Below are positions 5,448-55,763 of a stretch of DNA of 64,000 nucleotides, piece after piece. The DNA lies in NCBI GenBank assembly GCA_036172245.1, contig JAYWIR010000092.1, positions 124,001 to 188,000 of the forward strand, given 5' to 3'. Every line of letters starts with the position of its first letter. The stretch's first letter is position 1. The notes under the pieces are model-generated. The model had not been told where the DNA came from and searched no databases. It saw only the letters and a program-made list of their open reading frames with translations. A program made the translations under genes and the position numbers. This DNA comes from Raillietiella orientalis. Taxonomy: Eukaryota.

Positions 5448-6215
5448 CTGGACGATCAGGGCCACGAGCACTCGGCACCCGCCCAAATCCGCGGCCTGCT
5501 GCGTAGATACTTCTCCTCCCTGTATGCCAGGGCACCTCCGGAGAGAAACGTCTCACGATTCCTTCTTCCGGAAGTCGCTCCAGCGATCATGGAGGAGGAG
5601 AAAAAGACCATCGACGAGCCTTTCACGATGGACGAGATTCTCTTGGCCATCGGAAAGCTCAAGAGACGCAAGGCTCTAAAGGAGAACGGCCTGCCAGCGG
5701 AGTTTTAAAAAACTTTCGCTACTGAGCTTACATCCATGGTACCGCAAGTCACCTTGCTGAGCTTACATCCATGGTACCGCAAGTCATTAGCGGCCTCCTT
5801 AGCAGCTTTGTGCTGCCTTTGCGGGATCGTCGCAGCCTGGAGCAAGGCTACGGGACGACAACGCGACAAGGGTGTCATCCAGCCAGCCATCCAGTTTCTG
5901 AAGAGGGCGTTCCGATGGCCCTACCGGGATACAGGAATACAAAAGAAGCTTGCCGGCATCTTGCAAAGGCTGCAACGGCACCACCAGCAACTGTGATCCC
6001 TTTCCTTACCCTCCTAAATTTTCTTTTATTTTTTTGTTTTGTTTTTTGTTTTTCTCCCTTCTCCCTCCTACCGTGGTGGACCGTACCGGTCTGCGAATCG
6101 GTGACCCTGCAGGCTCTGTGTTTCTTCGTGCGTGGCTGGAGCCATGTTCCAGCCACCGCACGTCTTTGTAAATGTTTATTAAACACTAAACGCCCCGGCG
6201 AAATCCGAGTGAAAA
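5448..6215 (+). mobile_element. Family D-like remnant: ORF2 linker piece, ORF2 C-terminus, 3'UTR and 3' terminus
   Basis: LDDQGHEHSAPAQIRGLLRRY matches 61642 onward. It then jumps to AALCCLCGIVAAWS...*, a T-rich UTR and the terminal hairpin at 6188-6215. Assigning the 3' piece to family D is inferred from contiguity. Confidence 0.8.
5722..5786 (+). repeat. Direct repeat, 2 x 30 bp (CTGAGCTTACATCCATGGTACCGCAAGTCA), at an internal deletion breakpoint
   Basis: Copies at 5722-5751 and 5757-5786. Confidence 0.9.
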
Positions 6216-7466
6216 TCGAACGCCTTGTGAAAGACGACTGCGACCACCAAGGCACCTGGCGTTTTCTGCTGCCTTCGGCGCCTGTTCTTCTTGCTTGTGG
6301 CAACGACTTTCGCTTCAGCCAGGCTTCGCTGCGCCACGACTTTTTTCAGCTGCAACCAGGTACGCGCGAAAAGGATGTTCGCCTCCATGGATCGTCCCGT
6401 AACCGCGTAGGTTTGTTCCCGGCTCACCACAGATTCCGCGATACTTCCTAACCGCGCGACCCACAGCTTGGAAAACAACTTGACGTCCGAGTTCACCAAG
6501 GTGATCGGACGCCAGTTGTTAAGTTGACGCAAGTCTCCGCCTTTCGGCAGGAGACGCACCTTCGCTGAGCGGAAGGAATCCGACACATTCCCGGATTCAC
6601 TCATCAGCGTCGCGAGTTTCAGCATCAAGGGAATGAGCTCCACTGCAAAGCACTGATAAAACTCTGCAGGGAGCCCATCCTCGCCTGGCGCCTTTCGTCT
6701 CTTCAGCCCAGCGATTGCGGACGAAAATTCATCCGCCGTGAAGGGCTCGTCGAGACGTTTGCGTTCCTCCTCGCCGACAACACGAGCATCCTGAGACAGG
6801 AGTATCTCAGAAAGAATATCCTCCGTCGGGGATTCCGCGTAGAGCGAGGAGTAGTAGCGTCTCACAATGCGGCGTACTCCTGCTGGGGCCGAACATTCCT
6901 GGCCCTTGTCGTCCAACAGGCATGCTGCTCCGGACTGCCAGACCTGGCGCTCGGCCCTCGCCTTGTACTCTGCGAGACGCCCGACATCGGCGCGTCTCGA
7001 AAACGTGCGGGCCTGCAGAAAGTCTCTACTGTTGGCCACCCCCTCTCCGAAACCGCGTGGAAGCCGGTGCAAGGGGAATTGGCAGCAGAACTCGCGGACA
7101 GATCTTTTGAGATCGTCCCAGTCCGCAAGTCCTTGAATGGCAAAGCCTCGGAGGTATCCACGTAGATGCTCCGCAGCCTCCGGTTGGCTACGCCTATCCG
7201 CCGGCATCCTCCAGTTTTGCAAGGAAGGCTCCTTGTCTGGCGGAAGGAGCTCAAACTACAACCTGTGATGGTCAGAAAGCTTAGTCAACAATCGTACTCT
7301 CCTACCCACACGCGCATGCAGGTTCTCATCGAGGAAAACGTGATCGAGCGATCCTTCCATTCCAGGTTCGCTGACAATCAAGTTGGCGGCGTGCACCAAC
7401 GCGCACATCTCGATGGGCAGGGCGCGCTCCCTGTGGTGGCTTCAATCGTCGAAGAGCAGACGGACG
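6216..7466 (-). mobile_element. Family C-like ORF2 fragment (end of EN to RT 'HKAFD')
   Basis: ORF 6179-7222 is close to ORF 50679-53123 (PEAAEHLR, DWDDLKRSVREFCC, NNWRPITLVNSDVK). Confidence 0.92.
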
Positions 7467-10373
7467 TTTTCATCCGGTCACGTCGGGGCGTTTATTAAAA
7501 AACACTGTACATTTGCGGTACTAGGTCCCGCTAAGGCAAATATTTCATGAAACCTGCCAGGAAGCCGGTTCTGAAGCCAGCTTGTCCTCCTCGGCAGCGG
7601 AGGGGATAGAAGGTAAAACAAAAAGAAAAATAGATGAAATTACAGAAAGGAACTATTTGGAGGTCCGGGAAGGGATCACAGCCCGCTGGAGGAGGGGACC
7701 ATCCTCTCTAGGATGCCCTCGAGGTCCCTCGTCGTAGCTCCCAGATGGGACCAGCCGATCGCGATTCGCAGTTAGCGACCCGCGTGTACGATGGGGTTCC
7801 TGTCGCTGCTCCCTCTTTTGGCTGCGCTCCAGGCGGCCACAATCCATCTGAGGGAGAAGAGCGCTGCCGGGGTTTAGGCTGGTGGCAGGGCGTCTCGCAC
7901 GAAGAGGAGTCTCACAACGTCTCTTGGGGTACTGCCTACCGGCATAGGGAGGATCCCAGGATGACGTTCCCACAAGAGCCGGAGGGCAGCGCAGTCCACT
8001 AGCAGATTTATGAGGGATTCCTTCTCCCGCACACTGCACAGTTCTGTCTCACGTTCCCCAACTTCCAGTGGTGGTGGCGCATGTTGCAGGGAAGAACCGA
8101 GTGCAACAATAACAGCGCCGTTTTCTGCCACTTGAGAGGAAGGGTGGAGAAGTCTTTGAACAACGGGGGCCACTTTAGGTCATCCGCCGGGATGCCAAGC
8201 AGCTCGCTTTATCTCCGTATTCCATGCGAGTGAACGCTTGAGGATGCGGCATCTGCCAGTTGCCTCATTGTCCACCCGCTTAGATCCTTCTCCTTGCCCG
8301 CTATCCGGCAAGAGACTTGCCATCTCGGCTTCCGGTTGTTATGAAGCGCCCTTCGTAGGAAGGGCAGCGCCGTGGCCAGTGGGATCGTCTCTGCCCAAGT
8401 GCTTCTGGCGGGACACACGATCATGTTCCGCAGCGTGCAGTGGGTGTAGATGCCGGTGCGCAGGCGGTTGTCGGATTCTCCACTGATGTCTTTTAACTTT
8501 GCCCACGTTCCAACTGTTTCTTCCAGCCATGCGCTGGAGTTGTCGGGGCTGCAGGCCATGCACCCGTTCTCCTTTGCCAGGGTGGCCATGCGTCCCAGGA
8601 GAAGTCCGCATTTTCTTATTTTCCGGCAGGGGCACAGAAGAAAAGACGCGAGTTCTTCAGTCCCGGACACACGTCTTGCGAGAAGGCGGGCTGGAACGCA
8701 CCAACGGAAGTTCAACATTTTCGCTGAGATGGCTAGTGTGCGTCACCGCATCTGTGTTTTCATTCGCTCCATCGTCAGGACGCTAAGACCTCCGTCCCGA
8801 CGTGGTGCGCGCAAATCCTTTAAAGGCACATGAGGCCCCCCGCCGCCCCACAGGGCGATGCGTAGGAGGTCCTTTGTTCTTTTTTTCAGTTCACGGGGTA
8901 CGGGGAAAACAAACAGCAGAGGGCGAAGGAGAGGAACCGCGAACGCGTTCCACACCGCCGCCCGCTCCGGCAAGTGAAGCTTGCCTTCCAGAAACGGGCC
9001 GATCGCTGACTCCACTTTTTGGAGACGACCTGACCAGGCTTCTGACTGGCAGAAGTCCCCCAACGGAACGCCGAGGTACTTTAAGTACCTCTATGTGGGG
9101 ATCCTCAAGCGGATCCAGTCAAGCCGTCCGACTCACGTCGCACCAACCACTACCTCCGATGACTTCGCTTTATTTACCCGTAGTCCAGTCCCGCGGCTTA
9201 GCAGACAGAAGAAATCCTCGACTACGGCTGCCGGGGCGGACGTGGGCAAAAGGAGCAGAAGATCATCGGCGTAAGCCGCTACGGCCGGCGTACCTGGACA
9301 CGAGCTTCGGTGGGCAGCCAATGTCACCCTGTATGCTCTCAGCACCAGTTCGAAATAGGTGCTAAAGAGCAGGGGAGTCAGGCTGTCGCCCTGTCAAATG
9401 CCGGGCCTCACCTCTACGCCGAACACGTGCTGTCCTCTGAAAAACAAGTTGATGAACGCATTGCGCCAGCAGGCGCCCAGGTAGACCGTTAAGGTGTCCG
9501 GGAAGCCCATGCGATCCAGGAGCTCCAGAAGGAGTTCTCGGTCTACGCAATCGAACGCTTTGTGCAGATCGACTGCGATCGCTAGAGCCCCCTTCCCTTA
9601 CCGGTCGTCCCTTACTTGCTGCGCTGGCGCTTCCAAGTCAGTTTTGTCGACATTCCGTTTTTTCTCCAAATTTTTCTCGCGTTGCACATGGAACCATGTG
9701 CTGGCGAAGAACAGGTTCACTTCCATGCTTCGCCCGGGAAAAGCGTACGTCTGTTCCATGCTGAAAAAGCTGTCAGCTACCTGCCGCAGTCCCGCAGCCC
9801 ACAGTCCAGCCAGCAGCTTGGCGTCCGTGTTCACAATCGTGAACGGACGCTAGTTGCATCATTTTCTGAGGTCTTCTCCCTTAGGAAAGAGCCTCACCCA
9901 GGCTGACCGAAACGAGGCGGGAACATCGCCTTCGTTTCGGATCAGCCGTGTCAATTGGAGCACCAGGGTGGTCAGCTCTGCAACGAAGCTCTGAAAGAAC
10001 TCCGCCGGCAGGCCGTCCTCCCCTGGCGCGTGACGCCTCCTGAGCCTTTTAATAGCGGTGGTGATTACACCGGTCGTATAAGGCTCGTCGAGGCTTTCTT
10101 TCTCCTCCTCCCTTATGGCCGGGGCTCCATCTGGGAGCAAGCGCTGGAAGGCGTCCCACTCCGCAGGTACCCTGGCGCAAAGAGAGCAGTAAAATCCACG
10201 CACGAGGCGACGTATCGATGCTCGGTCTGAGTATTCCTTGTCCAGGTCGTCCAGCACGCTGGGCGGCCCGGATTGTCATCCTTGACGCTCGCCCCAACTT
10301 TGTACTCGGCCAAGCGACGAATGTCAGGGGTCCTTGAGAAACGACGGACGTGCAAATACGCCCTTTTGTAACG
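7467..10373 (-). mobile_element. Family B-like LINE, ORF2 linker to 3' end, degenerate
   Basis: APGEDGLPAEFF, AYADDLLLLL, ERAAVWNAF, PRRDGGL. Terminal AATAAA-hairpin at 7467-7496. Confidence 0.92.
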
Positions 10374-12410
10374 GGAGGACGTGTTTTTCCGTTGCTCCGT
10401 CAACAAGTACCGGGAAGCGGTTTCTTCTTGGAAAGTGTGTGTTTTTTCACATCGTAAGTGTCCGATGGCATCTCTGCCAGAGAACACCACGATGAAGGTA
10501 GGCGTGGGGAAGGCTAGTCATCCTTCACAGCCTACTGGATCAGTAGCATTCGCCCCGGAATCATCCCCGTCAACGCCGAGGACGTGGAGCGCCATGGTGG
10601 CCGCGCCGAGCGCGGAAATCTTGGAGGAGCAAGCGGCTTACAAGGCCTCAGGATATAAACCATCTCTGGTTTATAAAGTAGGACCCCTGTTCCATGGTCG
10701 CATTGCCCGGGTCTTCAGTAAGGCACTACAGGACTTTCCTGTAAGAGAAGAGGATCTTGACGGCCTCTCCGAACTCAGCGGGGGGCAGCGCGTGGAGGTC
10801 GTCTGCAAAGACGTAGCCTTAGCACAGCGAATGATAAAGACCCCGCTGAATATGGATGGCCGAAAAATCCTACCGGTTAGCATGGACCGCTCCGTAGTGG
10901 TCCATCTAACCGGAATCACAAATCAGATGACGCGCTTGGTGGTCAATTCCGAGTTGATGAAATACGGAGAGGTACACGCGTTGTGGCCAAAGCCCACCAT
11001 CTTCGAAGGTTTTCATGACCATTTTGGAGGCCAGGCTGCAGCGCGTTTCACTGTCAATGAGGGTGCTGGGTTGCCCCAGAAACTGAAGGTCGCGAAGGAA
11101 TCCGTCCACCTCTGGTACGTGGGGAAACCCCGCTATTGTGGCTACTGCAATGCAGTAGGGCACTTGCGCAAGCGGTGCCCGAACATTGAGTGCCACTTGT
11201 GCGGGTTTAAGGAACACGTTCGTCGTGTGTGCCCTAAACACCCCACACAAGTGCCAACTGCTGCCAGAAAGGCGCAGGCCAAAAAAATGAACAAGCTCGA
11301 AAGACCTAAGCGAGAAACTGTCCGACCCCAGCCGCCAACTGCTCTTCCTCACACCCAGGCGTCGGAGAATGAAACAGCGGAAGACGCGGGAGTGAAGGAG
11401 GGATGGCAACTGGTAGAGACCAGGAAGGAGAAACAAGTGGTGAAAGAACCACTGAAGTAAACGGAGAAAAAGAACACGGCAGGAAAGAATAATAAAGCCG
11501 CGCCGCTGTCAAAAATCTCCGCGAGTGCTCGGTAGCACTGGATCGCGTAAGCGTTCCTGAGGCTGCCACCCGGGACAACGAGCCCTCACTCACCGTTTCT
11601 GCCGCGTCCGAGGTTCGCGACCACGAACCCTCTGTTTACACAGAGGGTGAGCCGCGCGACGCGCTCGCCGACGGCGAGGACGCCGCCTACGCGAAGGCGT
11701 GGGAGGAGCTAGCGGTTACGCTGGCCGAGCGTGAGAACCCATCACGCAAGGCCGTGCGCAGGCCGGCTCCGCCGAAGAAGGCCCCCTTAGGTGAGTTCGA
11801 CCTGGGGGCCGTAAGTACATCCTCCTCTTCGGAGGCACCCCCTTTGAAGACGGGACGTAAGTCCCAAAAACCGAGGAGGCGCCTCCCGTCCCCGAGCGAG
11901 GAGGAGAAGCCGGAAGCCGACGACAGCGTGGGAAACCCGGAGGTAGAATTCCCACGCACGCAAGCCGTCGAGCAGGTCACCCCCTTGGAGGAGGGTAAAC
12001 AGGCTGGTGAAGTCCTCCCTGTAGTCGCCAAACCTGAACAGCTCGCCTCCATGGAGGAGGGCGAACAGAGAAACGCGACTCCACCGGAGGGCAAACCGGC
12101 CGATGCGCCGTTAACCATGGAGGAAGGGACCAGGTGCCTTTAGCACCTGACCCTCCCCTTCCACCTTGCGTCCCGCCCCAACAGGTGGCGGACGCCGCAG
12201 AGCCAATTTCCCAGGAATAACACCTGTGATCGCCTGTCGCCGTCGGATCCGCGTGGCCAGTTGGAACGTCAAGGGTCTGCGCGACGACGGCAACAGACGA
12301 GATAAGGCCGACACCCTCCGTGACTTGGACCTGGCTTTGCTGCAGGAGATCGACGTGATCACCGCGGCAGACGTCCAGGAGATCGAGACGATCGCGGAGG
12401 GTCGGCTGTT
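10374..12410 (+). mobile_element. Family B LINE 5' half (5' end, ORF1, start of EN)
   Basis: GGAGGACGTGTTTTT 5' motif; ORF1; RVASWNVKG...LALLQEI endonuclease start. Confidence 0.93.
10465..12221 (+). pseudogene. Family B ORF1 (nucleic-acid-binding protein, two CCHC knuckles), internal stops
   Basis: CGYCNAVGHLRKRC and CHLCGFKEHVRRVC; stops at 11460 and 12143. Confidence 0.9.
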
Positions 12411-15198
12411 TATAACCCGGGTGCACCAGGGCGTTTATTGTAAACTATCCGGGAACATGGTTCCTGGACAAAGGGGAAAACAAGAGACGAAGGGGGTGGG
12501 ATCCCGACACGCAGGTCGGTATGCCAAAAGTCCGGAACGGGAGGGAAGGGACCACAAATACACTACTATAAAAAAAAAAAAGAAAAATATGGAGGGCAGG
12601 GGACAGGGGTCTTTGGTGAGTCCGTTCCTTAATTTCAAAACAGGCGATGGGTTCCGGCGATCTCTTTCCTTACGCCCTGTGGCAGATGGGCCCACTCGGC
12701 AGCCGACGACATGTTTGTGCTGGCTAATCCCGTGGGCTGACGAAGGATGGCCAGCTTCTTCAACTCTCGGTGGAACTTGTCGATGGCGCGGGTGAAACAC
12801 ACGGCTGCAACGGCAGCACCCAAAGACAGCCCGCCTGCCGTGAAGAAGCGGCGCATCAAGTCCCTCGCGGTGTCCCCCTGATGCAGGAGAGCTGAGGCCA
12901 GCCTCCGCCAGACTCCTAGAAGGTCACTGCAGTCCAGGAGCAGGTGCGGGAGCGTTTCCACTTCCCCGCACCGCTCACAGTTTGGGGAGACAACTCCCCC
13001 GGAAGCAAGGTTCGTCCGCTGGTTGCAGTGAAAATCCCAATGCAGCAGCATGATGACGTACTGCTTCCACGAAAGGGGGAACATCGAAGTGTTTAAACAG
13101 GAGGGAGGGACCACAAGTTCTTCGGGGGGCACACTCAAGTGCTCGCTCCACCGAAGGAGTGCCTTCGAGATGAGGGGAGGCGTGGCGGCGTCTGCCAGCT
13201 TGCAAGTCCTCCAGCCGCCAATAAATCATGTTGTTCCTGCAATGGTGCAGGCGACCTCCTATCTCGCCGGTTCGCGGCGGTCATCTCTTGATCCGAGGGC
13301 AGACAGTGCGTCGGCGAACGGCGTGACGACCAGGCGGGTCCACTTCTCCTGGCTGTTGCACACCTCGTCCAACGTGCAATACGGGGACAGGTGAGCGCAA
13401 CGAAGCTCCAGGAGGAAAACATTCTGGTGCTTTGCCCAGCCATGCAACGGTTCCTGCGGTCAGGCTTGAAAGTTCGTTGGGCGGCAGGACATCCATTCCT
13501 AAGCTTTCAGGCGCCGGTACAGCGGTTTCAAGGGGAAACCGAAGCTTTTCGTAGCGCGCTCCGTGTGCGGCCGCAGCGACACAAGTCCATCACTGGCTGT
13601 GCAGCGCCGCAGAAGCAGGCGCGCGGAAGCGCACCACGGAGTGGACCAAAGGTTGGTGCACAGGGCCAACATCCGAAGCTGCACCTGCAGCTCGATTCTC
13701 TCCAGCGTCAGGATGCTTAAGAAAGCATCCCGACGCGGAGCCGTTAAGTCTTTGAGGCGTATCCTGGACCTCGCAGGTCTCCACAGAGCGTTCCTCAACA
13801 GGCTGTGTGCCTGGAGCTTGGCCGAGTAGGGAGACGGGCGAACAAAAAGCAGGGGGCGCAAAAGGGGGGCAACGAAGGTGTTCCATATCGTGGCCCGCTC
13901 AGGCAGGATGGACCTGCCATGGTGGAACGGGCTCAGAGCATTCGAAGCCTTTCGAAGGCAGTCCGACCACACTTCCACTGGGCTGATGTTCCCCAGCTGA
14001 ACGCCCAGATATTGCATGAAAGAAGCGGTCGGGATCTCCAGGCGGATCAAGTCGGACTGCCCCTACCACGCCGCATTAATAGGTACGACCACGCTCTTCC
14101 TCCGGTTTACGCTCATGCCCGCTACCCGGCAAATCAGCTCGAAGAAATCCTACAGACTGGACGCCGGGGTGGTCATGGGTAAGAGGAGAAGCAGGTCGTC
14201 AGCATAGGCCGCCACGGACGGCGCTCCTGTACATGAGCTTGGCAGGTTGGCCAGCGTAAGCCTGTACGCCCTCAGCACCAACTCAAAGAAGATGCTGAAG
14301 AGCAACGGGCTTAAGCTGTCGCCCTGTCTGATGCCCCGCCGCACCGGAACGCCGTACACATGGCACCCGCTAAAAGAGATGGAAATGAGCGCGTAGCGCC
14401 TGGAAGCTCGCAAATACGCCACGAGTTGCACCGGGATACCGAGACGTTCCAGGAGTTCCAGCAGGAGTTCCTGAATTACGCAATCAAACGCCTTGCGGAG
14501 ATCGACCGCGACCGCCAAGGCACCCGGCGCTTCCCCAGGCCGAATATAGCGACTCCAAGACTCGGTAGCCGCAGATGCGGTTGCCTGGCTGTCGTGCGTT
14601 ACGCAACGTTGCAGCTCGAGCCACGTGCGCGCGAAGAACAGGTTCGCCTTCATGGACCGCCCGGGAACAGCGTAAGACTTCTCCGGACTTACCACGGATT
14701 CAGCGATCCTGCCTAGGCGCGCGACTCAGAGGCTGCAGAACAACTTGACGTCCGCATTCACCAAGGTGATGGGACGCCAGTTGCTTAAATGGCGCATGTC
14801 TCCGCCTTTCGACAACAGACGCACCCTTGCTGAGCGAAACGAGGCCGTGACATTGCCCGTCTCACGCATCAGCGCAGAAAGCCTCAGCACCAGGGGTATG
14901 AGTTCCGCCGCGAAGCACTGGAAGAACTCCGCAGGCAGACTATCCTCACCTGGCGCCTTGCGCTTCCTGAGGCCCGCTATGGCGAAAGACACTTCTTCCG
15001 TCGTGAAGGGCAAGTCAAGTGTGGAGCGTTCCTTCTCGTCGATTGCAGGGGAATCCGCCGGCAGAAGCAGCTCAAAGAGACTGCGTTCCGTCGGCTCCCT
15101 AGCATACAACGAGGAGTAGTAGCGCTTTAGGAGACGGCGATCGTCGGCCGCGCCCGAGCACTCCAGGCCCTAGTTGTCGAGCAGACAACCAGGGCCTG
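12409..15198 (-). mobile_element. Family C-related LINE, ORF2 RT to 3' end, degenerate
   Basis: GIRQGDSLSP, AYADD, CERCGEVETLPHLLLDC. Terminal hairpin at 12409-12439. Confidence 0.92.
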
Positions 15199-15200
15199 GA

Positions 15201-17203
15201 GGCATCAGGCAGGGTGACAGCCTCAGCCCCCTGATCTTCAGCATCTACTTCGAGCTGGTGCTGAGGGCATACAGGGTGACACTGGCAACCCTGCCAAGCT
15301 CGTTTCCCGGCACGCCTGCCGTGTCGGCCTACGCCGACGCCCTTCTCATCTTGCTCCCCAGGTCCACCCCGGCGTCGGCGTTTGAAGATTTCTTTGAGTT
15401 GCAGCGCCGCGGAACGGGCCTCGAGGTGAACATAGAGAAATCCACAATAGTTCCTAGATCTTCACTGCTTTATGAAAATACGGCGTAAGCAGGACGGCCG
15501 GACTGGATTCGCTTGGGGACCCCCACGGGCAGGTGCTTCAAGTACCTTGGCGTTCCGTTGGGGGACTTCTGCGTTCCAGAAGCCTGGTCCATCCATCTTC
15601 AAAAGGTGAAGTTGGCGATCGGCCCGTTCCGGAACGGCAAGTTTTACTAGCAGGAGCGGGCCGCGGTGTGGAATGCGTTCGCGGCCACCCTCCTTCGCCC
15701 CTTACTTTTTGTTTTCCCCGCCCCTCCCATCATACAGAGACGGACCAAAGCCCTCTTGAGGACTGCCCTTCGGGGCACAGCGAGGTCGCGAGTCCTATTG
15801 AAAGACTTGTGCGCTCCACGCAGGAATGGTGGCTCGGGCCTCCTTACTTAGGAGCGCATCCAACTACAAACAACACTTCGAAAGTTAGCCCTTGCGGCTA
15901 TCTTATGGATGACGTCAAGGTGCGATCCGGCACGGCTCCTCGCCAGAAGAGCGACCAGCTGCGAAGGATTGTCCTCGATCCTCGTGGCCTACCAGCGCAG
16001 CCTCTCCAACTGTGGCCCCGATTTGCGCCAGATGGTCGCCCTGATGAGGGAGAATACCTGGATCTCCTGCCTCCCCGTGAACTGCACTGCCTGGCTTCAG
16101 GAGTCAGCTTCCGCGTGGGCTAAGATCAACGGCACGAGCAAGGCGGAATACAACTGCCAACGACGAGGACCGTACGCTCGACAGCCGCTGAAGGAGATTA
16201 TCAACACGCCCCGGAAGTTTCTGTGGGCTTCTTTCAGCCCCCTTGCCCCCGTTTTGTCCTCCCTAAAAAACACCTGGAGCAGCAACGAGCGGGCATCGTG
16301 GGAAGTGTTCTGCCTCATCCGAGGCAGGAAAAAACCTTTAAAGGCGTGGACGACTCGGGAGATCACGGACGCTGCCACCCCGAGCGTCCCGCCTCACGGA
16401 CTTGCGCGCTGGGGAGTGCTGCTCGCGATACCTCCGGAGAAGGTGAAGTGGCCCCCAGCGTGTTGGGATTTCGGCACACTTCCGTTGAAGTGGCAGGAGA
16501 CGGTGTTGCTATTTCTGCACTGGAGACTGTTAAGCAGAGCACGCCTGTCTCACTGGACACTGAGGAATGTGTATGCCCGCTGTGTCGAGTGCGGTGAAAG
16601 AGAAACCTCCATGCATCTCACCCTCGAGTGTGTCGCCCTGGATGGACTCTGGAGTCGTATCGCCCCAATCCTCCATCTTCCAGTAGGCGACGCTAAGGAA
16701 ATTTACCATCGCCTCTTTCTGCGTGACGGCCTGCGCCCCGCTGCGTCTCTAGCAGTCCTCTGCTGCGTGCGCGGCATTGTGCAAAGGTGGCACGCCAGAA
16801 GAAGAGGCCCAAGATGCAGGGACGCTTTCCACTGGACGACGATCTCTTTAGAGACTGCGACAAGGTGGAATCTACTTCCAACAGTAAAAGCTGAACTTGA
16901 CTGCATCCTAAACAGGATGCGGAGGACCGACCCAGGCGCCCAGTGATCCCTTCCGTGCCCCCCCTCCACCGCCCCATATAACTGTTTCCCTCCCGTTATT
17001 TCTCTTTTTGTTTGTTTTTTGTTCTACTTTTCCCTTCCCATGCGCCTCGGGAATGGACCTAAGCGGACTATGCACCGGCAACAGACACGTCACCCAAGGT
17101 GGGAAAACCAAGTTTTTTCCACAACCAACTTTTGAAAGACTTTATTATCTGATTTTTGTAATAAATTAGAATAATAAATGCCCCGGCATATCCGGGTGAC
17201 AAA
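15201..17203 (+). mobile_element. Family G LINE, 5'-truncated within RT, complete 3' end
   Basis: Starts at GIRQGDSLSP; YADA; CVECGERETSMHLTLEC; stop at 16946; AATAAA at 17173 + hairpin. Confidence 0.92.
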
Positions 17204-17300
17204 CGTCGGCCGCGCCCGAGCACTCTACGCCCTGGTCGTCGAGCAAACAAGCCGTTCCTGACCGCCAGACCTGGCGCTCGGCCTTGGCCTGGTACTCCGA
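17204..17300 (-). mobile_element. Host ORF2 remnant (SEYQAKAERQVWRSGTACLLDDQGVECSGAADV)
   Basis: Translation matches the family C ORF2 linker. Confidence 0.85.
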
Positions 17301-18611
17301 GTGCAACAACAACAGCGCCGTTTCCTGCCATTTGAGGGGGAGGGTGGAAAAGTCTTTGAACAACAGGGGCCATTTTAGGTCATCCGCCGGGATGCCAAGC
17401 AGCTCGCTTCATCTCCGTTTTCCATGCGGTTGAACGCTTGGGGATGCGGCGTCTGCCAGTTGCCTCATTGTCCACCCGCTTAGATCCTTCTCCTTGCCCG
17501 CTATCCGGCAAGAGACTTGCCATCTCGGCTTCCGGTTGTTATGAAGCGCCCTTCGTAGGAAGGGCAGAGCCGTAGCCAGTGGGGTCGTCTCTGCCCAAGT
17601 GCTTCTGGAGGGACACACGATCATGTTGCGCAGCGTGCAGTGGGTGTAGATGCCGGTGCGCAGGCGGTATCCGGATTCTCCACTGATGTCTTTTAACTTT
17701 GCCCACGTTCCAACTGTTTTTTTCAGCCATGCGCTGGAATTGGCAGGGCTGCAGGTCATCCACGCGTTCTCCTTTGCCAGGGTGGCCATGCGTCCTAGGA
17801 GAAGTCCGCATATTTTTTGTTTCCGGCCGGGGCATAGAAGAAAAGACGCGAGTCCTTTAGTCCCGGACATACGTCTGGCGAGAAGGCGGGCCGGTACGCA
17901 CCACTGGGTGTTCCGCATTTTCGCTGCGATGGCTAGAGTACGCCACCGCAGCTGTGTTTCCATTCGCTCCATCGTCAGTACGCTGAGACCTCCGTCCCGA
18001 CGCGAGGAAGTGTAAGCCCTGAGTGTGCCAGGTGTGGGGAGCGGGAATCGCTCCTCCACCTTCTAGTTGACTGTGCTGCCATCCGTCCCCTGTGGGAACG
18101 GTTCGGGACGACCCTCGGGCTCCCAATGGACAGCGCGCCCAGAGTCGTTCTTCGGCCATTCTTCGTGCGTGACGCCCTGCAGCCCGTCGCAGCCCTCGCA
18201 GCCCTCTGCTGCATCCGGGGCATCGTGTCGGCCTGGAGCGACATTTGCGACGAAGGAGTGGATGCCAACGAGAGGGTAGTCATTCCGTATGCTGCGAGCT
18301 TCATGCGAAGAGTTGCAAGATGGCCCCATCTGGGACAAACGCCGAAGGACCTAGAGGGCATCCTGCGAAGGATGAGCCCTCCTCCTAGTGAATAGTGATA
18401 CCTTTCCCTCCCTCAAAACTTCTTTTGTTCTCCTTTATTTTATTTTTTTTGTGTTTTGTTTTCTCCCAAACTCCCCTCCACTGCCGAGGAGCGTCACGCC
18501 GGGCTGCGTCCCGGCGTCCAAGCAGGTCCGGTGTTGTGCGGCCGTTAGTGGGGCCTCGTACCACGTTTTTGTAGAGTTTCAATGAACGCCCCAGGTGTAC
18601 CCGGGTGGCAA
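17301..18611 (+). mobile_element. Family B LINE, 5'-truncated with 5' inversion (17301-~18002 inverted)
   Basis: The minus-strand piece RRDGG...LLLLH lies just upstream, in the intact element, of the plus-strand piece TRGSV...PPPSE*. Terminal hairpin at 18581-18611. Confidence 0.88.
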
Positions 18612-29881: not shown

Positions 29882-30395
29882 TTTTCACTCGGATAATCCG
29901 GATCTTTTATTACTAAAATTGTATTATTAAGATTATTTCTTTATCTTCTTATTTATTTTATTATTATTCGAATTTCTCAATAAACTGTATTATGAAGTCT
30001 AATTCTATTGTGTTTTTTTTGAGTCAGAACCCACAATTCTCATTTGATTTGTTACACCTGTCCTTACCGAATTGCAGGCCACTGACATGCTCTAAATGAA
30101 AGAACTATTCAGCAAAACCAGAAACAAAAACACACGTTTATCTAAGTTTTAGAGGGTAAGGGAATGAAAGGAGGGATCAAGGTATGCCACGAGAAGGCCT
30201 GTGCATCCAGTTTTGGATGTGGATAGCTGCTGGCAAAAGTTTTCTCAACCGGTGCCATCGGGTAACCGCCTCCCTTGAGATGACTGCCCAATGAATTGCA
30301 ACTCGTCTTTGGTGTCCTATCCTCTGCGGAGTCCACTTCTCCAGGATTCTGCGTATTCAGCAAGGAACTGCCGCACACTCGGCTGCTGGCAGGAC
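29882..30395 (-). mobile_element. Very old G-like LINE 3' end; left edge of the right nest
   Basis: Reverse strand reads AVPC*IRRILEKW...IHWAVISREAVTRW (compare G: AVLCCVRGIVQRW...FHWTTISLETATRW). Terminus is AATAAAAGATCCGGATTATCCGAGTGAAAA at 29882-29911. Confidence 0.75.
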
Positions 30396-30734
30396 GTTGA
30401 GAATGAGAACACGACAGAAAATGTATTTTGGGTCTCACAGCGTATTGTTCAAAATCGACGAAATTCGTTCCGACATGAGGCGCAGAACGACACCTCTATT
30501 TGGAGGTCAGGGTTGGTTTTTCTTTCACAGCATCATGCACAATTGGCATTTACAATCCCAACTGTTCCTTTTGCAATCGGATGTGTTCTGTCATGTCTTC
30601 GCGAACTGGTGGTTGAGAAGGTTTTTTTTTGGAGTGCGTGTGGTGTATGGAACTGATGGTGCACCATTCCAGCGATGCATGAATACAGTGCAATTTAGAT
30701 CAGCAAGGAAGAAACGATTTGCCCTCCTCCAGAA

Positions 30735-34595: not shown

Positions 34596-34605
34596 TTCGG
34601 AGTGA

Positions 34606-36310
34606 TTTCCACCAGGGAAATCCCGGAGCGTTTATCGAAAAAACATTCCACAAACGTGATACCAGAACCCACTAACGGCCACACAACACCGGACCTGCCG
34701 GGACGCCAAGACGCAGCCCGACGTGGCTCTCTTCGGCAGTGGAAGGGATGGGGGAGAAAACAAAAAGAAAAATAAAAAGTAAGGACAACAAAAAGAAGTC
34801 GGAGGGCTGGGAAGGGATCACTGTGCACTGGGAGGAGAGCTCATCCTTCGAAGGAAGCCCTTTAAGTCCATTCGAATTGTACCAAGCTGGAGATATCCAG
34901 AAGCTTTCTTCAGGAAGCGAACAGCATACGAGATGACGTCCCTATCGTTCTGGTCCACATCTTCGTAGCGTGTATCACTTTACGCCGCCACGATGCCACG
35001 GATGCAGCATAATGCTGCCACGGCTGCGACTGGCTGCAGGGAGTCCCGCACGAAGAGGAGGCGGAAAACGTCTCTGGGCGCGCTGCCCTTAGGGAGCCCT
35101 AGGGTAGTTTCAAACCGTTCCTACAGGGGTAGCAGGGCAGCACAGTCAACAAGAAGGTCGGATAGCGATTCCCTCTCCCCACACCGGGCACACTCAGGAT
35201 TTACTCTCCACCGGGTCCAGTGGAAGCTGCGCGCGTTACAGGGCACGCCCCAATGCAACGTCAGCAGCGCCGACTCTTGCCACTTGAGGGGGAGAATCCT
35301 AGCTCAATTCAAACCGGGGGCCACTTCAAGTCATCCGTCGGGATGCCGAGCAGCTCGACCCATCTTGCAAGTCATCGCGGGAGGGCACTCGGGGTCGTGG
35401 CATCCGCCAGTTCTCCCTTGGTCCAACCGTTTAAAATCTTCTGTCGTCCTGAGATGCGGCAGAAGACTTGCCACTTCGGCTTCCGACCGCTGGTAAGAGC
35501 TCTATACAGAAAGGGCAGCGCCGCAGCTAAAGGGGTGGTCTCCGCTTACGTGCTTATGGCGGGACACAGCAAAGTGGACCGTAGAGTGCAGCAACCGTTA
35601 CTCCTGAATCGCAGGCGGTTCCAGATTTCCTCTCTGGTGTTGTTCAACTTTGCCCATGTTCCAACGGTTTCCTCCAACCAGGCCGAGGAGTCGGCGGGGC
35701 TGCATACTATCCAACCGTTCTATCTTACCAGGGCTTCCATGCGCTTGAGGAGGAGACCGCAACTTCTAACCTTCCGGCCGCGGCACCGAAGATAGGACGC
35801 GAGCCCATGCGTCCAGGAAACACGGCTGGCAAGGAGGCGGGCCAAAACGCTCCAAGGGTTGTTCCACAACTTCGCTACGATGGCCAAAGTGAGCCATCGG
35901 AGCTGGATTTCCAAGCGCTCTAGCGTCAGGAGACCAAGACCGCCGTCCTGACGTGGAATGCACAAGTCCCTCAGAGGTACTCGGGGACTTCCCTTGCCCC
36001 AAAGAACGATGCGAATAAGGTCCTTGATTCTCTCCTTCAACAGGGTAGGGACGGGGCAAACAAAAAGCAGGGGGCGAAAGATGGGAGCCACGAACGCTTA
36101 CCATACCCCGGCTTGCTCCAGCAAGAGAAACTTGCCCTACAGGAACGGGCCGATCGCCGACACCACTTCTTGGAGACGACCTGACCAGGCTTCTGACGGG
36201 CAGAAGTCCGACAAAGGACGCCAAGTTACTCCAGGTACCTGGCCTCGGGGATCCCCCAGGGGATCCAGTCTGGCCATCCAGCCCACGTCGCACCAACCGC
36301 CAACACCGAC
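34606..36310 (-). mobile_element. Family B LINE, 5'-truncated, complete 3' end
   Basis: RPLLFVCP, PRQDGGLGLL; B-type 3'UTR; terminal hairpin at 34606-34636. Confidence 0.9.
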
Positions 36311-37032: not shown

Positions 37033-37225
37033 GCAAGCGTTCCAGGAGCTCCAGGAATAGCTCCTGGTCGACGCAATCAAAAGCTTAACAGTTGAAAATG
37101 TCAACAGCGTGGGAGCGAACCGGCGGAAGCGTTCGTCATTGAGACCGTGATCGATGACACCGCCTTCGAGCGTGCGGCGGAGAAGCTGGCTGCATCGTTA
37201 AAGCCAGACCCCTACAAAGCCAGTT
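37033..37225. mobile_element. Minus-strand RT scrap (KAFDCVDQELFLELLERL, 37033-37086) joined to a plus-strand family D ORF1 scrap (37087-37225)
   Basis: The second part aligns with 48520-48655 (IDD.AF.RAAE.LAASL.P). Confidence 0.8.
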
Positions 37226-40200: not shown

Positions 40201-42421
40201 CCAAAATGAAACTGGCGGAAAGATTGGCAACCCCACTTTGGGGCCGCCAGCTGGGCTGGGAATGGACACCCGGGCTGGGAAGGGGGCCCTAGCGATCGCG
40301 GTCGATCTCCATAAGGCGTTCGACTGCGTTGACCAGGAGCTACTGTTGGAGCTCCTGGGTCGCATGGGCTTCCCATCCTCCCTTCTCTCCTTCCTGCGCT
40401 CCTGCTGGCGCAACGCCATCGTTAACATCTGCTTTTCCAGCCAACAGGTGTACGGCGTGCCGGTGCGGCGGTGCATACGGCAGGGCGATAGCCTCAGTCC
40501 CCTGGTCTTTAGCACCTACTTTGAGTTGGTGCTGAGAGCGTACAGGGTGACTTTGGCCCCATTGCCGAGCTCGTGCCCCGGCACGCCCGCCGTTGCAGCG
40601 TACGCCGTCGATCTTCTGCTCTTGTTGCCCATGTCCGCCCCGGCAGCCGCAGTCGAGGATTTCTTCGACCTGCTAAGTCGTGGGACTGGACTTCGGGTAA
40701 ACAAGGCGGAGTCGTCGGTCGTAGCGGTGGGTGCGACGTGGGTCGGACGGCCTGACTGGATCCGCTTAAAGATCCCCGCGGCCAGGTACCTGAAGTACCT
40801 GGGTGTCCCGTTGGGGGACTTCTGCCTCGCAGAAGCCTGGTCAGGTCGTCTCCAAAAGGTAGAGTTGGCAATCGGCTCGTTTCTGGAAGGCAAGTTCCTT
40901 CTGCCGGTACGGGCCGCGGTGTGGAACGCGTTGGCGGCTTGCATCCTCCGCCCCCTGCTTTTTGTTTGCCCCGTCCCCCGTGACATTAAAACGTGGACCA
41001 AGGACCTACTCCGCATCGCCCTCTGGGGTAGCGGGAGGCCACGTGTGCCTCTAGATGACTTATGCGCTCCTCGTCGGGACGGCGGTCTCGGCCTCCTGAC
41101 GCTGGAGCGCCTGGACATACAGCTGCGATGGCGCACCCTCGCCATCGCAGCAAAGTCATGGAGCACCCCTTGGTGCGTTCCGGCCCGCATCCTCGCCCGC
41201 CGTGTGTCCAGGACGCAAGGACTCGCGTCGTACCTTCTGTGCTCTGGCAGGAAGGTCAGAAGATGCGGCCTTCTCCTTGGGCGCATGGAAGCCCTGGTGA
41301 GAGACAACGGCTGGATGGTATGCAGCCCCGCCAACTCCTCCGCCTGGCTGGAGGAATCCGTTGCGACGTGGGCCAAGCTGAACCTCCAGACTTCCCCGGA
41401 CTGGAACCGCCTGCAATTCGGCCCCAACGCCTGCTGCACACTGCGGACTACTCTGGAGTGTCCCGAAAGGAGCACGTGGGTGGAGACTACCCCTCTAGCC
41501 TCGACCCTGCTCTTCCTACGAAGAACTTTAACCAGTGGCCGCAAGCCAAAGTGGCAAGTCTCCTGTCGAATCGCAGGCAAGGAAAAGAAGATGAGCGGTT
41601 GGACCATGCAAGAACTGGCAGATGCCACGACCCCGAGTGCCCTCCCGCGTGGACTTCGTCGCTGGGGTGAGCTGCTCGGCATCCCGACGGATGACCTGAA
41701 GTGGCCTACAATATTAATCGGATCCAGGCTTCTCCCCCTGAAGTGTCAGGAGTCGGCGCTGCTGCTGTTGCACTGGAGTCTACCCTGCAACGCGCGCCGC
41801 TTCCACTGGACGCGAGGAAGTGTAAGGCCTGAGTGTGCCAGGTGCGGGGAGCGGGAATTGCTCCCCCACTTACTTGTTGACTGTGCTGCCCTCCGACCCC
41901 TGTGGGAACGGTTCGGGACGACCCTCGGGCTCCCAATGGGCAGCGCGCCCAGAGTCGTTCTTCGGCCCCTCTTCGTGCGGGACTCCCTGCAGCCCACCGC
42001 AGCCCTCGCATCTTTCTCCTGCATCCGAAGCATCGTGGCGGCCTGGAGCGACATTCGTGACGAAGGAGTGGATGCCAACGCGAGGTATGTCATCCCGTAT
42101 GCGGTCTGCTTCATGCAGAGAGCTGCGAGATGGCCCCATCTGGGAAGCATGAAGATGGACCTGGAGGGCATCCTGCGAAGGATGGGCCCTCCTCCCAGTG
42201 GATTGTGATTTCTTCCTCTCCCTCCAAACTCATTTTTTGTTTTCCTTATCTTTATCTTTCTTTTTGTTTTGATCCTTATCCCCCTCCACTGCCGAGAAGC
42301 GTCACGCCGGGCTGCGTCCCGGCGTCCCGGCAGGTCCGGTGCTGTGTGGCCGTTGGGGGGGCTCGTACCACGTTTATACAGAGTTTTTTTGATAAACGCC
42401 TCGGGCGTACCCGGGTGACAA
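37226..42421 (+). mobile_element. Family B LINE with both termini and an internal ORF2 deletion at ~40075-40097
   Basis: 5' motif at 37226-37240; ORF1 37315-39058 (broken); EN 39060-40075; RT to C-terminus 40097-42208; terminal hairpin 42391-42421. No matching TSD seen, so it may be a recombinant. Confidence 0.92.
40097..42208 (+). pseudogene. Family B ORF2 C-terminal 703 codons (RT with YAVD; CARC...HLLVDC)
   Basis: Open frame, but the N-terminal RT is deleted and the catalytic YADD is altered. Confidence 0.9.
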
Positions 42422-45048: not shown

Positions 45049-45147
45049 CGACGCTCCCGAGTCTCTCGGATTGAAGCCTTTTTAAGGCCTTGGTCCGGGA
45101 GTTCTGCAAGCAGTTCCCCTTGAACCGCCTGCCTTCCGGATTCGGCG
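45049..45147 (+). mobile_element. Host ORF2 remnant ending at 'SGFG-V'
   Basis: VREFCKQFPLNRLPSGFG. Confidence 0.85.
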
Positions 45148-47254
45148 TTATAACCCGGATACGCACGGGGCGTTCATTTGTGAACTCTACATGCCTGGTA
45201 CGAGGCCCCATTACGGCCGTAAACACAGGACCTGTCGGGACACCGGGACGCAGCCCGGCGTGGCACTCCCCGTCAACGAAGGGGGATGGGGATAAGACAA
45301 TAAGAAAAATAAAAAAAGAAACAAACAAAAAGAAGTTGGAGGGCAGGGAAGGGATTACTGGTCACTGTGGGAAGGGCCCATCCGTCGAACAAAGCCCTCG
45401 AGGTCTGTCTTCATATTCCCTAGTTCGAGTCATCCGGCAGCTTTCCGTAAAAAGCGTTGGGCATACGGGATGACATCACTCGCCTGTGGATCCACTCCTT
45501 CGTAGTTGACGTCGCTCCATGCCGCCAGGATGCCACGGACGCAGCACAAGGCTGCGATGGCTGCGGCTGACTGCAGTGCGTCCTTCACGAAGAAGGGCCG
45601 AAGAACGTCTCTGGGGGTGCTGCCCGTAGGGAGCCCGAGGGTCGTGCCGAACAGTTCTTAAAGAGGTCGGAGGGCAGCACAATCCACAATAAGGTGGGGA
45701 AGCGACTCCCACTCCCCGCAACTGGCACACGCAGGATCCACAGCTCCCCTCGTCCAGTGAAAGCGGCGCGCGTTGCAGGGTAGACCGCAGTGCAATAGGA
45801 GCAGCGCCGACTCTTGCTACTTGAGGGGCAGGATCCTGGATTCTTTTATCACCAGGGGCCACTTCAGCTCATCCCTGAGGATGGCGAGCAGCTCGCCCCA
45901 CCTCACTAATTTACGCGGCTGGACGCTCGGAGTCATGGCGTTGGCCAGTTCTCCTGTTCTCCAGCCGCTAATCAACTTCTCGCGTCTCTCGATGCAGCAG
46001 GAGACTTGCCACCTTAGCGTCCGGCTGCTGTGAAGTGCCCTCCTCAGGAAAAGCATCGCTGTAGCTAGGCAGGTTGTCTCTGCCTACGTGCATCTTGCTG
46101 AACTCTCCAGGAGATTCCGCAGCGTGCAGCGGGCGTAGGGGCTGCATCGAAGACGATTCCACGTTTCGTGGCTACTCTGGTTTACCACTGCCCACGTTCC
46201 AATATTCTCCTCCAGCCAGGCAGGGGAGTTGGCGGGGCAGCAAACCATGCAGCTGTTCTCCTTGGCCAATGTTGCCTTGCGCCCGAGCAGTACGCCGCAT
46301 CTTCGAATCTTTCGGCCACGGCTCAGAAGAAAAGAAGCAAGTCCTTCGCACCGGGAAACACGGCTGGCCAATAGGCGGGCCGGAGTGCACCAAGGGGAGC
46401 TCCACATCTTCGCTGCGATGGCAAGGGTTCGCCATCGCAGCTGGATTTCCACGCTCTCCAGCGTCAGGATGCTGAGACCGCCGTCTCGACGCGAAGCGCA
46501 CAAGTCATTCAAAAAGACTCGGGGCCTCCCCTTGCCTCAAAGGGCTATGCGGAGGAGGTCCTTTGTCTTCTTCTTTGATTCCACGGTGGGAGAGCAAACA
46601 AAAAGCAAGGGGAGGAGGATGGGCGGCCGCGAAGGCGTTTCGAACCGCGGCCCGTTCGGGCAACTGAAACTTGTCTTCCAGAAACGGGCCGATCGCCGTC
46701 TCGACTTTTTGAAGGCAGCTGGACCACACTTACGCAGGGGAGTAGTCCCCCAACGGCACACCAAGGTACTTGAAGCACCCCGTCGTGAGGATCCCCAGAC
46801 GGACCCAGTCCTGGTGCCATGCTTACGCCGCACCTATTGGCACCACCGACGACATAGCCCTGTTCACCTGCAGTCCGGTCCCGCGGCTGAGCAGATCGAA
46901 GAATTCTCCGATTGCCTTTTCCGGGGTGGACATTGGCAACAAGAGCAGAAGATCGACGGCGTACGCTGCAACGGCGGGCGTGCTGGGGTACGAGCTCGGC
47001 AATGGGGCCAAAGTCACCCTGTACGCTCTCAGCACGAACTCAAAGTAGGTGCTAAAGAGCAAAGGGCTAAGGCTATCTCCCTGCCTTATGTCCCGTCGCA
47101 CCGGCACGCCATGCAACTTGTTACCGCTGAAAGTGACGGTATTCCTCACATTCCGCCAGCAAGAGCGCAGGTGGGAAATCAAGGAGGGTGGGAAGCCCAT
47201 CCGACACAGGAGCTCCAAGAGTAGTTCCTGGTCTACACAGTCGAACGCCTTGTG
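45148..47254 (-). mobile_element. B-related LINE, RT ('HKAFD') to 3' end; flanks the D element on its 5' side
   Basis: IRQGDSLSP, AYAVD; B-type 3'UTR; terminal hairpin at 45148-45178. Confidence 0.9.
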
Positions 47255-47348
47255 CGCTCTAGGGTGGACGTGTTTTCTTGGAGCTCCTCGTGCCAGGAAG
47301 TCTCCCCCAGTGCAAGCGTCGTGTGGTTCGGTTGTCGATCAGGCAGCG

Positions 47349-49010
47349 ATGCCTGACGCGACCACCAGAGATGGCCAGGGGACAGCGGCAACGCCGCCCT
47401 CAGAGGCGATGGAGAGCCAGGGGGCGGCGGCAACGTCGCCCCCAGAGGCGATGGAGGTGGGGGCATCCGCCCCCACAGAATCGGTCCCCGCTACAGCGAG
47501 GGCGTGGAGCGCCGTTGTGTCGGCGCCATCGCCTGCAGCCGCGGCGGAATTGTCGGCCTATGTAGAGGAGGGGTACAAACCCTCATTGTTCTACAAGGTA
47601 GGAAATTTATATTCTTTAGAGAGCGCGCGCGACTTCTCGAAGGGCATGCGCGCTCTCGATGTGAAAGAGGAGGAGCTCAGCGCTATGACCATCCGCAGCG
47701 GGGGTCAGTACGTTGAGGTCATCTGCAAACATGCAGAGCTGGCCCAACGACTGCTTAAAACCCCCGTTGTGATGGGGACGCGCAGGCTTCTCCCCACTAC
47801 GGCGGACCGCAGCATGGTGGTCCACCTGTTAGGCGTGACCGCGCGAATGCGCAAAGAACAGGTTCGCGCCGCTTTGGAACAGTTTGGAACGGTCCACGCG
47901 CAGTGGACGAAAGTTAGTCCTTTCGAGGACTACACGGGGCTGCAACACGGCCTCACTGCTGCGCGCGTGACCGTTCGGGAGGACTGCACTCTTCCCCACA
48001 AACTGGTGGTCGAAGGCGAAACCGTCGACCTCTGGTATGTGGGGAAGCCGAAATACTGTGGCTTCTGCAATACGTCGGGCCACCTCAAAAAGAGGTGTCC
48101 CAATGTGCAGTGCCAAGTATGCGGCACAATGGGCCACACGAGGGAAGTGTGCCCAAAAGCAGCAGTGCGGGTGGTTTCCAAGAGAAACCTTAAAAAACGC
48201 GCCCGGCTTCTGCAGAAAAGACTGGCGGCGAAAGCTACCGCGAAGGCTGTGCCACACGCGCCCAAGACCCAGGCCGCACCCGAGACCCCGGCGACCAACG
48301 CCGAAAAAGTAGAGGGAGCCGGCCAGGAGACTGAGTGGCAAGTGGCAACAGCCAAAAAATCAAAGAAGGAGAGGAGGATGGAAAAGAAAATCGCCTACCA
48401 ACAGAAGAAGAAAGAGCAGGGTAGCGCGATAATTAAAGAGTGCATCGTCGTTGTCGAACGCGTTCTCGATGTTGCCGAACGCTGCCGGAAAGAACTCGCC
48501 GCTACCGACGACCTCCCCTCTGTTGACACAGTCAACAGCGAGGGGAGCGAGCCGGCGGCGGGGTCCGTCATCGACACCACCATCGATGACGTAGCCTTCG
48601 CGCGAGCCGCGGAGGAGCTGGCAGCTTCGTTGCAGCCAGAACCCTCCAAGGCTGGCAAGAAGGCCGTAAGGCGTCCGGCCTCCCCTCAGGAGTACCCCAC
48701 TTCCGACCCCGAGGTGGAGGCCGGAAGCGCAGCCTCCGTTTCTACGGCACCGCGCAAGAAGGCTGGACGTAAGTCCACAAAGCCAAGGAAGCTCGTCTCC
48801 CCCGTGGAAGGGGAAGAGATGGCTTCCGCAAGCGAGGGTGCCATGAGCGTGGGAAACTCTCGGGACCCGTCGCCCGAGAGACTCCCACGCACGGACACGG
48901 AGGGGATGGAGGGGGTGGAGGCCGAACAGGTGCCTCAGGTGCCTGAGAAGGCCGAGACCCCCATGGACATCCCGCCCGCCTCGCAAGAGGAGGGCTCCCC
49001 CACACCTTAA
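47349..49010 (+). CDS. Family D ORF1 protein, open, ~553 aa, two CCHC knuckles
   Basis: CGFCNTSGHLKKRC and CQVCGTMGHTREVC. ATG at 47349 follows the 5'UTR. A 13-codon duplication lies near the N-terminus. Confidence 0.88.
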   Translation: MPDATTRDGQGTAATPPSEAMESQGAAATSPPEAMEVGASAPTESVPATARAWSAVVSAPSPAAAAELSAYVEEGYKPSLFYKVGNLYSLESARDFSKGMRALDVKEEELSAMTIRSGGQYVEVICKHAELAQRLLKTPVVMGTRRLLPTTADRSMVVHLLGVTARMRKEQVRAALEQFGTVHAQWTKVSPFEDYTGLQHGLTAARVTVREDCTLPHKLVVEGETVDLWYVGKPKYCGFCNTSGHLKKRCPNVQCQVCGTMGHTREVCPKAAVRVVSKRNLKKRARLLQKRLAAKATAKAVPHAPKTQAAPETPATNAEKVEGAGQETEWQVATAKKSKKERRMEKKIAYQQKKKEQGSAIIKECIVVVERVLDVAERCRKELAATDDLPSVDTVNSEGSEPAAGSVIDTTIDDVAFARAAEELAASLQPEPSKAGKKAVRRPASPQEYPTSDPEVEAGSAASVSTAPRKKAGRKSTKPRKLVSPVEGEEMASASEGAMSVGNSRDPSPERLPRTDTEGMEGVEAEQVPQVPEKAETPMDIPPASQEEGSPTP

Positions 49011-49527
49011 TCTTCCCCGCAGTAATTCCGGGAATCCCCTCCCGCCGTCGTCTGCGCATCGCCGTTTGGAACGTGAACGCCATGACAGACGCCGGCAGGA
49101 GACGAGACATGGCCGCCCTTCTGGAGTCCTACGACCTTGCGCTGCTGCAGGAGATCCACGTGATCTCTGCAGAACAAGCGCAAGAGATTTCTCACCCGGT
49201 CACGCCGGGGCGTTTATTCCATATAACATAACCAAAAAAAAAAAAGCAATTATACAAAATAAACCAGTTGGGAACCAAACTTCCAACCGACGACTGAACA
49301 AGAATGAAGAGAATATTGCTGGCACGCAGGCCAGAGTAACAGTTTTGTGAACGGTGTGGGGGGGCGGGAAACACAAAGAAACCAAAATAAAATAAAAACA
49401 ATGAATAAGGAGGACGGGATAAGGGTCTTTGGGATCGCTCTGGAAGACACGGGGATAAAAGCATGGGCACCGGAAATTTTATTGAGCGAACGGGGACGGG
49501 GTATGGGTGGGCGAGAGGTCGCAGGGG

Positions 49528-55750: not shown

Positions 55751-55763
55751 GTCTTCCCCTTTT

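Follow-up and report, generated by a model that had tools for sequence, protein, structure and literature searches.

In L1/Tx1-like retrotransposons from Raillietiella orientalis, comparative analysis supports an RNA stem-loop, read on the element strand, that is conserved and covaries and that occupies a common position in the 3′ untranslated region (UTR). We studied these elements in a 64,000-nucleotide (nt) stretch of contig JAYWIR010000092.1 (positions 124,001 to 188,000 of the forward strand; assembly GCA_036172245.1), hereafter called the window, and in a sample drawn from the genome (210 Mb, 491 contigs). The 18S gene of this genome looks arthropod-like. The window is a nest of broken retrotransposons without long terminal repeats (non-LTR) on both strands. 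As in the L1/Tx1 group of long interspersed elements (LINEs), the first open reading frame (ORF1) encodes a CCHC knuckle and ORF2 encodes an apurinic endonuclease (APE), a reverse transcriptase (RT), and a zf-RVT domain, with the domains spread over different copies. Target preference exceeded the 20% of flanks of one type that Kojima's rule asks for, and target-site duplications were present. The closest named RT relatives are fish proteins with 28 to 33% identity, one of them labelled TX1, and one unnamed protein is 74% identical. In an RT tree without an outgroup and with a long-branch warning, the window elements formed their own long-branch group with one unnamed protein; such a tree cannot place them inside the Tx1 clade proper.

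The 3′ UTR hairpin and its covariation

A first-pass annotation, made from the sequence of the window, had listed seven hairpins. We recovered all seven strings at the same coordinates and strands, each in the 3′ UTR of a nested L1/Tx1-like LINE, and found two further homologous copies. The nine copies are as follows.

18496 to 18517, plus strand: 3′ UTR hairpin, family B; 8 bp, loop CTGCGT, G-C closing pair
42304 to 42325, plus strand: 3′ UTR hairpin, family B; 8 bp, loop CTGCGT
34703 to 34724, minus strand: 3′ UTR hairpin, B-clade copy; contains G·U pairs
45240 to 45261, minus strand: 3′ UTR hairpin, B-clade copy; one G·U pair
12504 to 12519, minus strand: 3′ UTR hairpin, family C1; 5 bp, loop CTGCGT, C-G closing pair
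49319 to 49334, minus strand: 3′ UTR hairpin, family C2; 5 bp, loop CTGCGT, C-G closing pair
6085 to 6102, plus strand: 3′ UTR hairpin, family D; loop CTGCGA, U-A closing pair, rival fold thermodynamically preferred
7562 to 7583, minus strand: homologous hairpin with a variant loop, family H copy ending at 7467; missed at first
17063 to 17078, plus strand: decayed homologous hairpin, family E copy ending at 17202, family loop CTATGC; missed at first

The hairpin of family H has the family loop CTCAGA and a C·A mismatch beneath the loop. The hairpin had been called absent from the copy ending at 7467, which does carry it, and from two elements designated A and G, which we match to elements of the window by presumption. 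By inspection, a divergent lineage (2 to 4180 and about 53.8 to 59.4 kb) does lack it. The element that crosses the right edge of the window has its hairpin about 290 nt past the edge. We counted eight hairpins with a CTGCG[T/A] loop and a stem of at least 5 bp in the window, compared with a mean of 0.63 (standard deviation, 0.79; maximum, 4) in 200 block-wise first-order Markov resamples. The eighth, at 31835, sits in an ORF2 fragment and looks like a chance occurrence. The loops lie 99 to 135 nt upstream of the element end, close to the distance of about 95 to 130 nt first proposed, and across families the hairpin stands about 35 to 42 nt behind a U-rich tract. An Rfam scan of the window gave no match, and a tRNA scan found no tRNA. 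Among sequencing runs, no RNA run was listed, and in contigs of the one DNA run (share 0.05) the listed differences did not extend to the hairpin.

To compare families, we used the best 30 loci for each of six tails and about 390 kb of nest DNA, from which we collected 235 distinct 3′ ends, each with the 200 nt before it. At 85% identity they formed 42 clusters. Three of these were removed ahead of the count, cluster 22 as a false hit and clusters 25 and 38 for truncation within the UTR, and 39 remained. The alignment, made with MAFFT, which was blind to pairing, held 35 of these, with f9, f16, f18, and f40 excluded as decayed, poorly pairing, or unplaceable; f24, f16, and f18 were left out of the tree test, for which the ORF2 tree had 28 tips.

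RNAalifold predicted the hairpin unaided. We found that 82.9% of the 280 stem cells (8 pairs in 35 representatives) pair, compared with 26 to 45% when the partners were slid, and that the covariation score was 0.49, compared with 0.08 to 0.17 in the slid controls. The loop-closing pair is U-A in 12 rows, C-G in 10, G-C in 8, A-U in 1, and G-U in 1, and it is unpaired in the other 3. By mutual information with average product correction (MI-APC), this pair ranked first of 703 column pairs (z 9.1), and it co-changed on the same branch five times in the ORF2 tree. Pairs 46-67 and 49-64 ranked 5 and 10. The parsimony co-change ratio alone was noisy, with several unrelated column pairs equalling the closing pair, and we therefore relied on MI-APC and the slid controls. 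G·U outnumbered A·C between families by 23 to 7 (p 0.005) and among copies within families by 13 to 9; this excess fits selection on the sense-strand RNA. The proposal that the hairpin covaries across families was thus borne out.

The same annotation had described the stems as wholly replaced, and this did not hold. A CCGG/CCGG core is kept: the four inner pairs, C-G, C-G, G-C, and G-C, persist in 24, 26, 31, and 27 of the 35 representatives, and most of the change in the stem falls on the closing pair and the outer pairs. On the tree, the inner stem and positions 1, 2, and 5 of the loop changed 0 to 5 times, compared with 5 to 10 times for most flanking columns. A tentative outer stem below the hairpin is 65.7% paired, mainly in the B, D, and H clades. 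We rejected the rival fold predicted for family D, in which an upstream GGACC pairs into the 5′ arm; its pairs do not reach the top 12 by MI-APC, and the relatives f17, f23, and f29 have mismatches in it.

Loop variation and tail architecture

The loop had been said to stay constant while the stem changes. We found instead that several multi-copy families are fixed for other loops. The majority loop is CTGCGT in families B (25/29), C1 (31/32), and C2 (28/31), CTGCGA in D (23/32), CTATGC in E (30/31), and CTCAGA in H (20/30). Extra sampling of f27 gave CTGCGC in 9 and CTGTGC in 5 of 18 copies. In f29 (n = 16), we found CTAAAG in four copies, CTAAGG in three, the E-type loop in three, and mixed others, and 19 of 20 copies of f31 have a 5-base loop inside a C-G pair. 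On the ORF2 tree, loop positions 1, 2, and 5 changed 2, 0, and 3 times, and positions 3, 4, and 6 changed 5, 8, and 6 times, like the flanks, although single old copies inflate these counts. It is mainly the C, U, and G at positions 1, 2, and 5 that persist. Cluster H is split between four copies that retain CTGCGA-like loops and a majority with CTCAGA; their ORF2 DNA is 91% identical from one group to the other and 92% identical inside a group. This switch from CTGCGA to CTCAGA and the flank-like change of positions 3, 4, and 6 weaken the case for loop-specific recognition. CTGCGT occurs on either side of the midpoint root, in families that are 33 to 41% identical in C-terminal ORF2, and is therefore probably ancestral. 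A UNCG tetraloop with C(UNCG)G closing was considered and rejected, since just 5 of the 35 rows have G at position 6; UGCG is also described as rarely folding as a UNCG tetraloop (PMC9323530).

The hairpin is not at the very 3′ end, beside the start of reverse transcription. A separate terminal hairpin occupies that place, within a terminal module that all nine window 3′ ends share: a hexamer resembling the AATAAA poly(A) signal, a GC hairpin, and a TG-NN-AA end with no long A tail. The copies of this module are as follows.

6185 to 6215, plus strand: terminal module, family D; poly(A)-signal-like hexamer, GC hairpin, TG-NN-AA
7467 to 7496, minus strand: terminal module, family H
12410 to 12439, minus strand: terminal module, family C1
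17173 to 17202, plus strand: terminal module, family E
18581 to 18611, plus strand: terminal module, family B
34606 to 34636, minus strand: terminal module, B-clade copy (decayed)
42391 to 42421, plus strand: terminal module, family B
45148 to 45178, minus strand: terminal module, B-clade copy
49189 to 49218, minus strand: terminal module, family C2

The terminal module is near-invariant and ends every family, and its conservation exceeds that of the upstream hairpin. Between the two conserved hairpins, D, C1, C2, and E have a third, family-specific long hairpin (for example, at loci L093, L032, L066, and L123), whose long AU-rich stem overlaps the AATAAA in E and C2. One locus (L169) holds two H-family ends in opposite orientation within 3 kb. 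A metagenome scan for the terminal motif returned one match, which lacked LINE similarity and was treated as chance.

The 3′ UTR of the divergent lineage (about 59290 to 59385 and 4090 to 4180) is short and, by inspection, has no U-rich tract and neither conserved hairpin. This lineage is inserted antisense within the ORF1 of another element in an 89% identical block (2 to 5760 compared with 55205 to 61954), of which the left copy is short by about 1 kb; a duplication, or else two insertions into a single site, would explain the block. From about 21700 to 30700, the window has a low GC content (39 to 48%) and no LINE ORF match, and this stretch contains one 192-codon frame (25362 to 25940, minus strand) without a Pfam hit.

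Possible roles of the hairpin

On balance, we think that the hairpin is probably an inherited 3′ UTR stem-loop of an L1/Tx1-like radiation, maintained with compensatory changes, and an upstream part of a stringent template-recognition signal. According to this model, the tail would act as a multi-hairpin template signal made up of the U-rich tract, the hairpin, the variable middle hairpin, and the terminal hairpin. The hairpin would aid binding by the element's own ORF2 protein (ORF2p) or ORF1 protein during template choice, and recognition would rest on the CCGG stem core and on C, U, and G at loop positions 1, 2, and 5 and not on the whole CUGCGU. The terminal hairpin, not the upstream one, may fix the start of reverse transcription, and cis-preference may prevent families from moving each other despite their common loops.

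Several points weigh against this model. Strong covariation is found at the closing pair only, and five other pairs rank 81 to 521. Folding z-scores of the nine window copies run from −1.0 to +1.0, so that the hairpin is not singled out thermodynamically. Its pairing probability is at most 0.2 in the representatives of D, C1, and f41, in which rival folds win, and locally in f12. The exclusion of f9, f16, f18, and f40 favours structure, and the alignment windows were centred on the loop by hand. Known recognised stem-loops are mostly described at the very end of the tail (PMC5135761), and the hairpin here is well upstream of it. In ZfL2, the loop separates families (PMC4176376); here one loop is common to distantly related families, which would also fit a host factor. 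Binding of the hairpin by an ORF protein and its role in mobility are putative.

The main rival, which we regard as possible though rather unlikely, is that a host RNA-binding protein acting in 3′ end formation, stability, export, or germline transport imposes one pseudo-triloop shape on all families, with C1 and G5 of the loop paired across it and base 6 bulged. The common loop in families with so little ORF2 identity favours this, as does the location of the hairpin between the U-rich tract and the AATAAA. In seven of nine multi-copy groups (B, C1, C2, D, E, H, and f27), the majority loop retains C at position 1 and G at position 5 and leaves base 6 free; f29, which is mixed, and f31, with its other loop length, break the pattern. 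A loop with a C-G cross-loop pair, a UGC triloop, and a U bulge on a G-C closing pair is described as a pseudo-triloop by nuclear magnetic resonance (NMR), which matches the loop of family B, but a C-G closing pair or an A bulge is described as preventing this fold (PMC3884659, where one sentence interchanges the hepatitis B virus [HBV] and foamy virus bulges). Families C1 and C2 have the C-G closing pair, and D has A at position 6. A G-C closing pair is present in 8 of 35 rows, and its combination with a pyrimidine bulge occurs in the B clade, not in C1, C2, or D. In addition, C1 and G5 are conserved but do not covary, and the factor itself is hypothetical.

A broader conjecture, of which we are quite doubtful, is that such a pseudo-triloop evolved independently as a protein handle in these LINEs, in HBV epsilon, and in foamy viruses, with one common kind of factor reading it in all of them. 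LINEs that insert into the ORF2 of one another would then form a guild that shares the handle and still avoids mutual hijacking, and template choice would have two steps, one using the shared handle and one a private terminal or cis step.

In its strong form, the suggestion of the first-pass annotation would mean that ORF2p reads CUGCGU base by base and that families sharing the loop mobilise each other. The fixation of the loop within B, C1, and C2 and the ZfL2 loop-swap data (PMC4176376) are in its favour. The endonuclease is held to determine the target (PMC4494074); a copy moved by the protein of another family should therefore land at the site of that family. We found that each family inserts on the antisense strand of sibling ORF2s at a site of its own, close to residue 66 of the reference ORF2 in C2, 75 in C1, 306 in B, 363 in E, 582 in D, and 1086 in H. 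Among 183 copies, 119 were at their own site (37 to 93% of the copies per family), none was at the site of another family, 44 were unmapped, and 20 were elsewhere. The family-specific target motif spans 4 to 9 bases (flanks of L001 to L180), and the first six target bases fit the copy's own family in 174 of 183 cases. In the four families with CTGCG loops (B, C1, C2, and D; 123 copies), no copy had the target motif of another of the four. Target-site duplications of 11 to 16 bp were found in 20 of 50 5′-short copies and start at the element end, and thus the motif bases belong to the target and not to the element. Because the queries contained 3 to 9 target bases and only top hits were taken, trans events under a few per cent could escape this count, and a trans-moved copy could be guided to its own site by read-through RNA that pairs with the target. 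Downstream flanks to which the ORF references did not map are common to some D and B-clade copies (L104, L106, L116, and L192; L010, L011, and L023; and the flank at window position 34606), suggesting secondary targets in another repeat or in noncoding parts of LINEs.

The loop switch within lineage H also counts against base-by-base reading, and no short interspersed element (SINE) carrying the motif turned up in about 1 Mb, a weak test in DNA enriched for LINE nests and not genome-wide. Thirty copies shorter than 800 nt included no group with a common non-LINE head. We found 97 CTGCGN hairpins in the same DNA, of which 74 precede a terminal module; by eye, 7 of the remaining 23 resemble LINE tails whose ends are cut or diverged, and 16 resemble chance hits. 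Together, these results make base-by-base reading with cross-family mobilisation very unlikely.

A DNA-level dyad site, or GC-rich sequence that drifts slowly and is passed on with no selection for pairing, would account for the palindromic CCGG in both arms and the unremarkable folding z-scores, but we consider it similarly improbable given at least three Watson-Crick types with same-branch co-change at the closing pair, the G·U excess on the element strand, and the slow change of the inner stem and of loop positions 1, 2, and 5.

These elements add a comparatively well supported structured tail from an unsampled L1/Tx1-like lineage, which bears on the question of stringent RNA recognition as an ancestral trait of the L1 group. 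Their dozens of natural stem and loop variants, combined with family-specific targets, offer a ready test of how the choice of template is coupled to the choice of target. Elements of this kind are already known, and the gain is modest unless the pseudo-triloop reading holds.

Comparison with known systems

A literature search on Tx1 non-LTR target specificity and stem-loops gave no match, although no search was aimed at CUGCGU in LINEs, and a search on nested Tx1 insertion listed nothing on this lineage. The nearest counterpart is a monocot L1 lineage (monocot-1a; LINE1-1_ZM, with ZmSINE2/3), also of the L1 clade, which has a 3′ hairpin with a conserved loop and a variable stem kept by compensatory changes (PMC3747384). 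That hairpin lies in the last ~45 to 50 nt, has the loop core UCU, and has partner SINEs (PMC3747384). In contrast, the hairpin here lies 99 to 135 nt upstream, is followed by a second, more conserved terminal hairpin, and had no SINE partner in the roughly 1 Mb searched.

The tails had also been likened to those of stringent LINEs such as UnaL2, which is summarised together with SART1 and R2 in PMC5135761. The analogy is reasonable, but the UnaL2 stem-loop is better matched in position by the terminal hairpin, in the last 30 nt. Like the hairpin described here, UnaL2 (GGAUA loop; PMC5135761) and ZfL2-1/ZfL2-2 (PMC4176376) have in the 3′ UTR a short stem-loop that tolerates exchange of its stem letters as long as pairing is kept. 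ZfL2 stem-loop mutants lose mobility, and stem swaps are tolerated whereas loop swaps are not (PMC4176376). Those elements belong to the L2 clade, their loops separate families, short tandem repeats follow the stem-loop, and function was shown by mutation and binding; here it is putative. We found neither a GGAUA-type loop nor short tandem repeats; the loop is CUNNGN, and the TG-NN-AA end is free of repeats.

Similarities in the loop extend to viruses. The apical loop of HBV epsilon, CUGUGC, folds as a pseudo-triloop (PMC1636360), and both this loop and that of foamy virus (PMC3884659) resemble the LINE loops in having six bases, with C at position 1, G at position 5, and a free base 6. The HBV epsilon sequence CUGUGC itself occurs in 5 of 18 copies of the subfamily f27, and family B fits the described foamy virus loop. 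The likeness, read here from the letters only, implies no homology, and six-base matches arise easily.

Finally, Tx1-clade LINEs (Tx1L in Tx1D, Tx1-Mar; PMC4494074) share with these elements the APE-RT organisation and family-specific targets inside mobile elements. They differ in that the targets here are sibling LINE ORF2 codons on the antisense strand and in that the RT is only 28 to 33% identical to named Tx1-like proteins.

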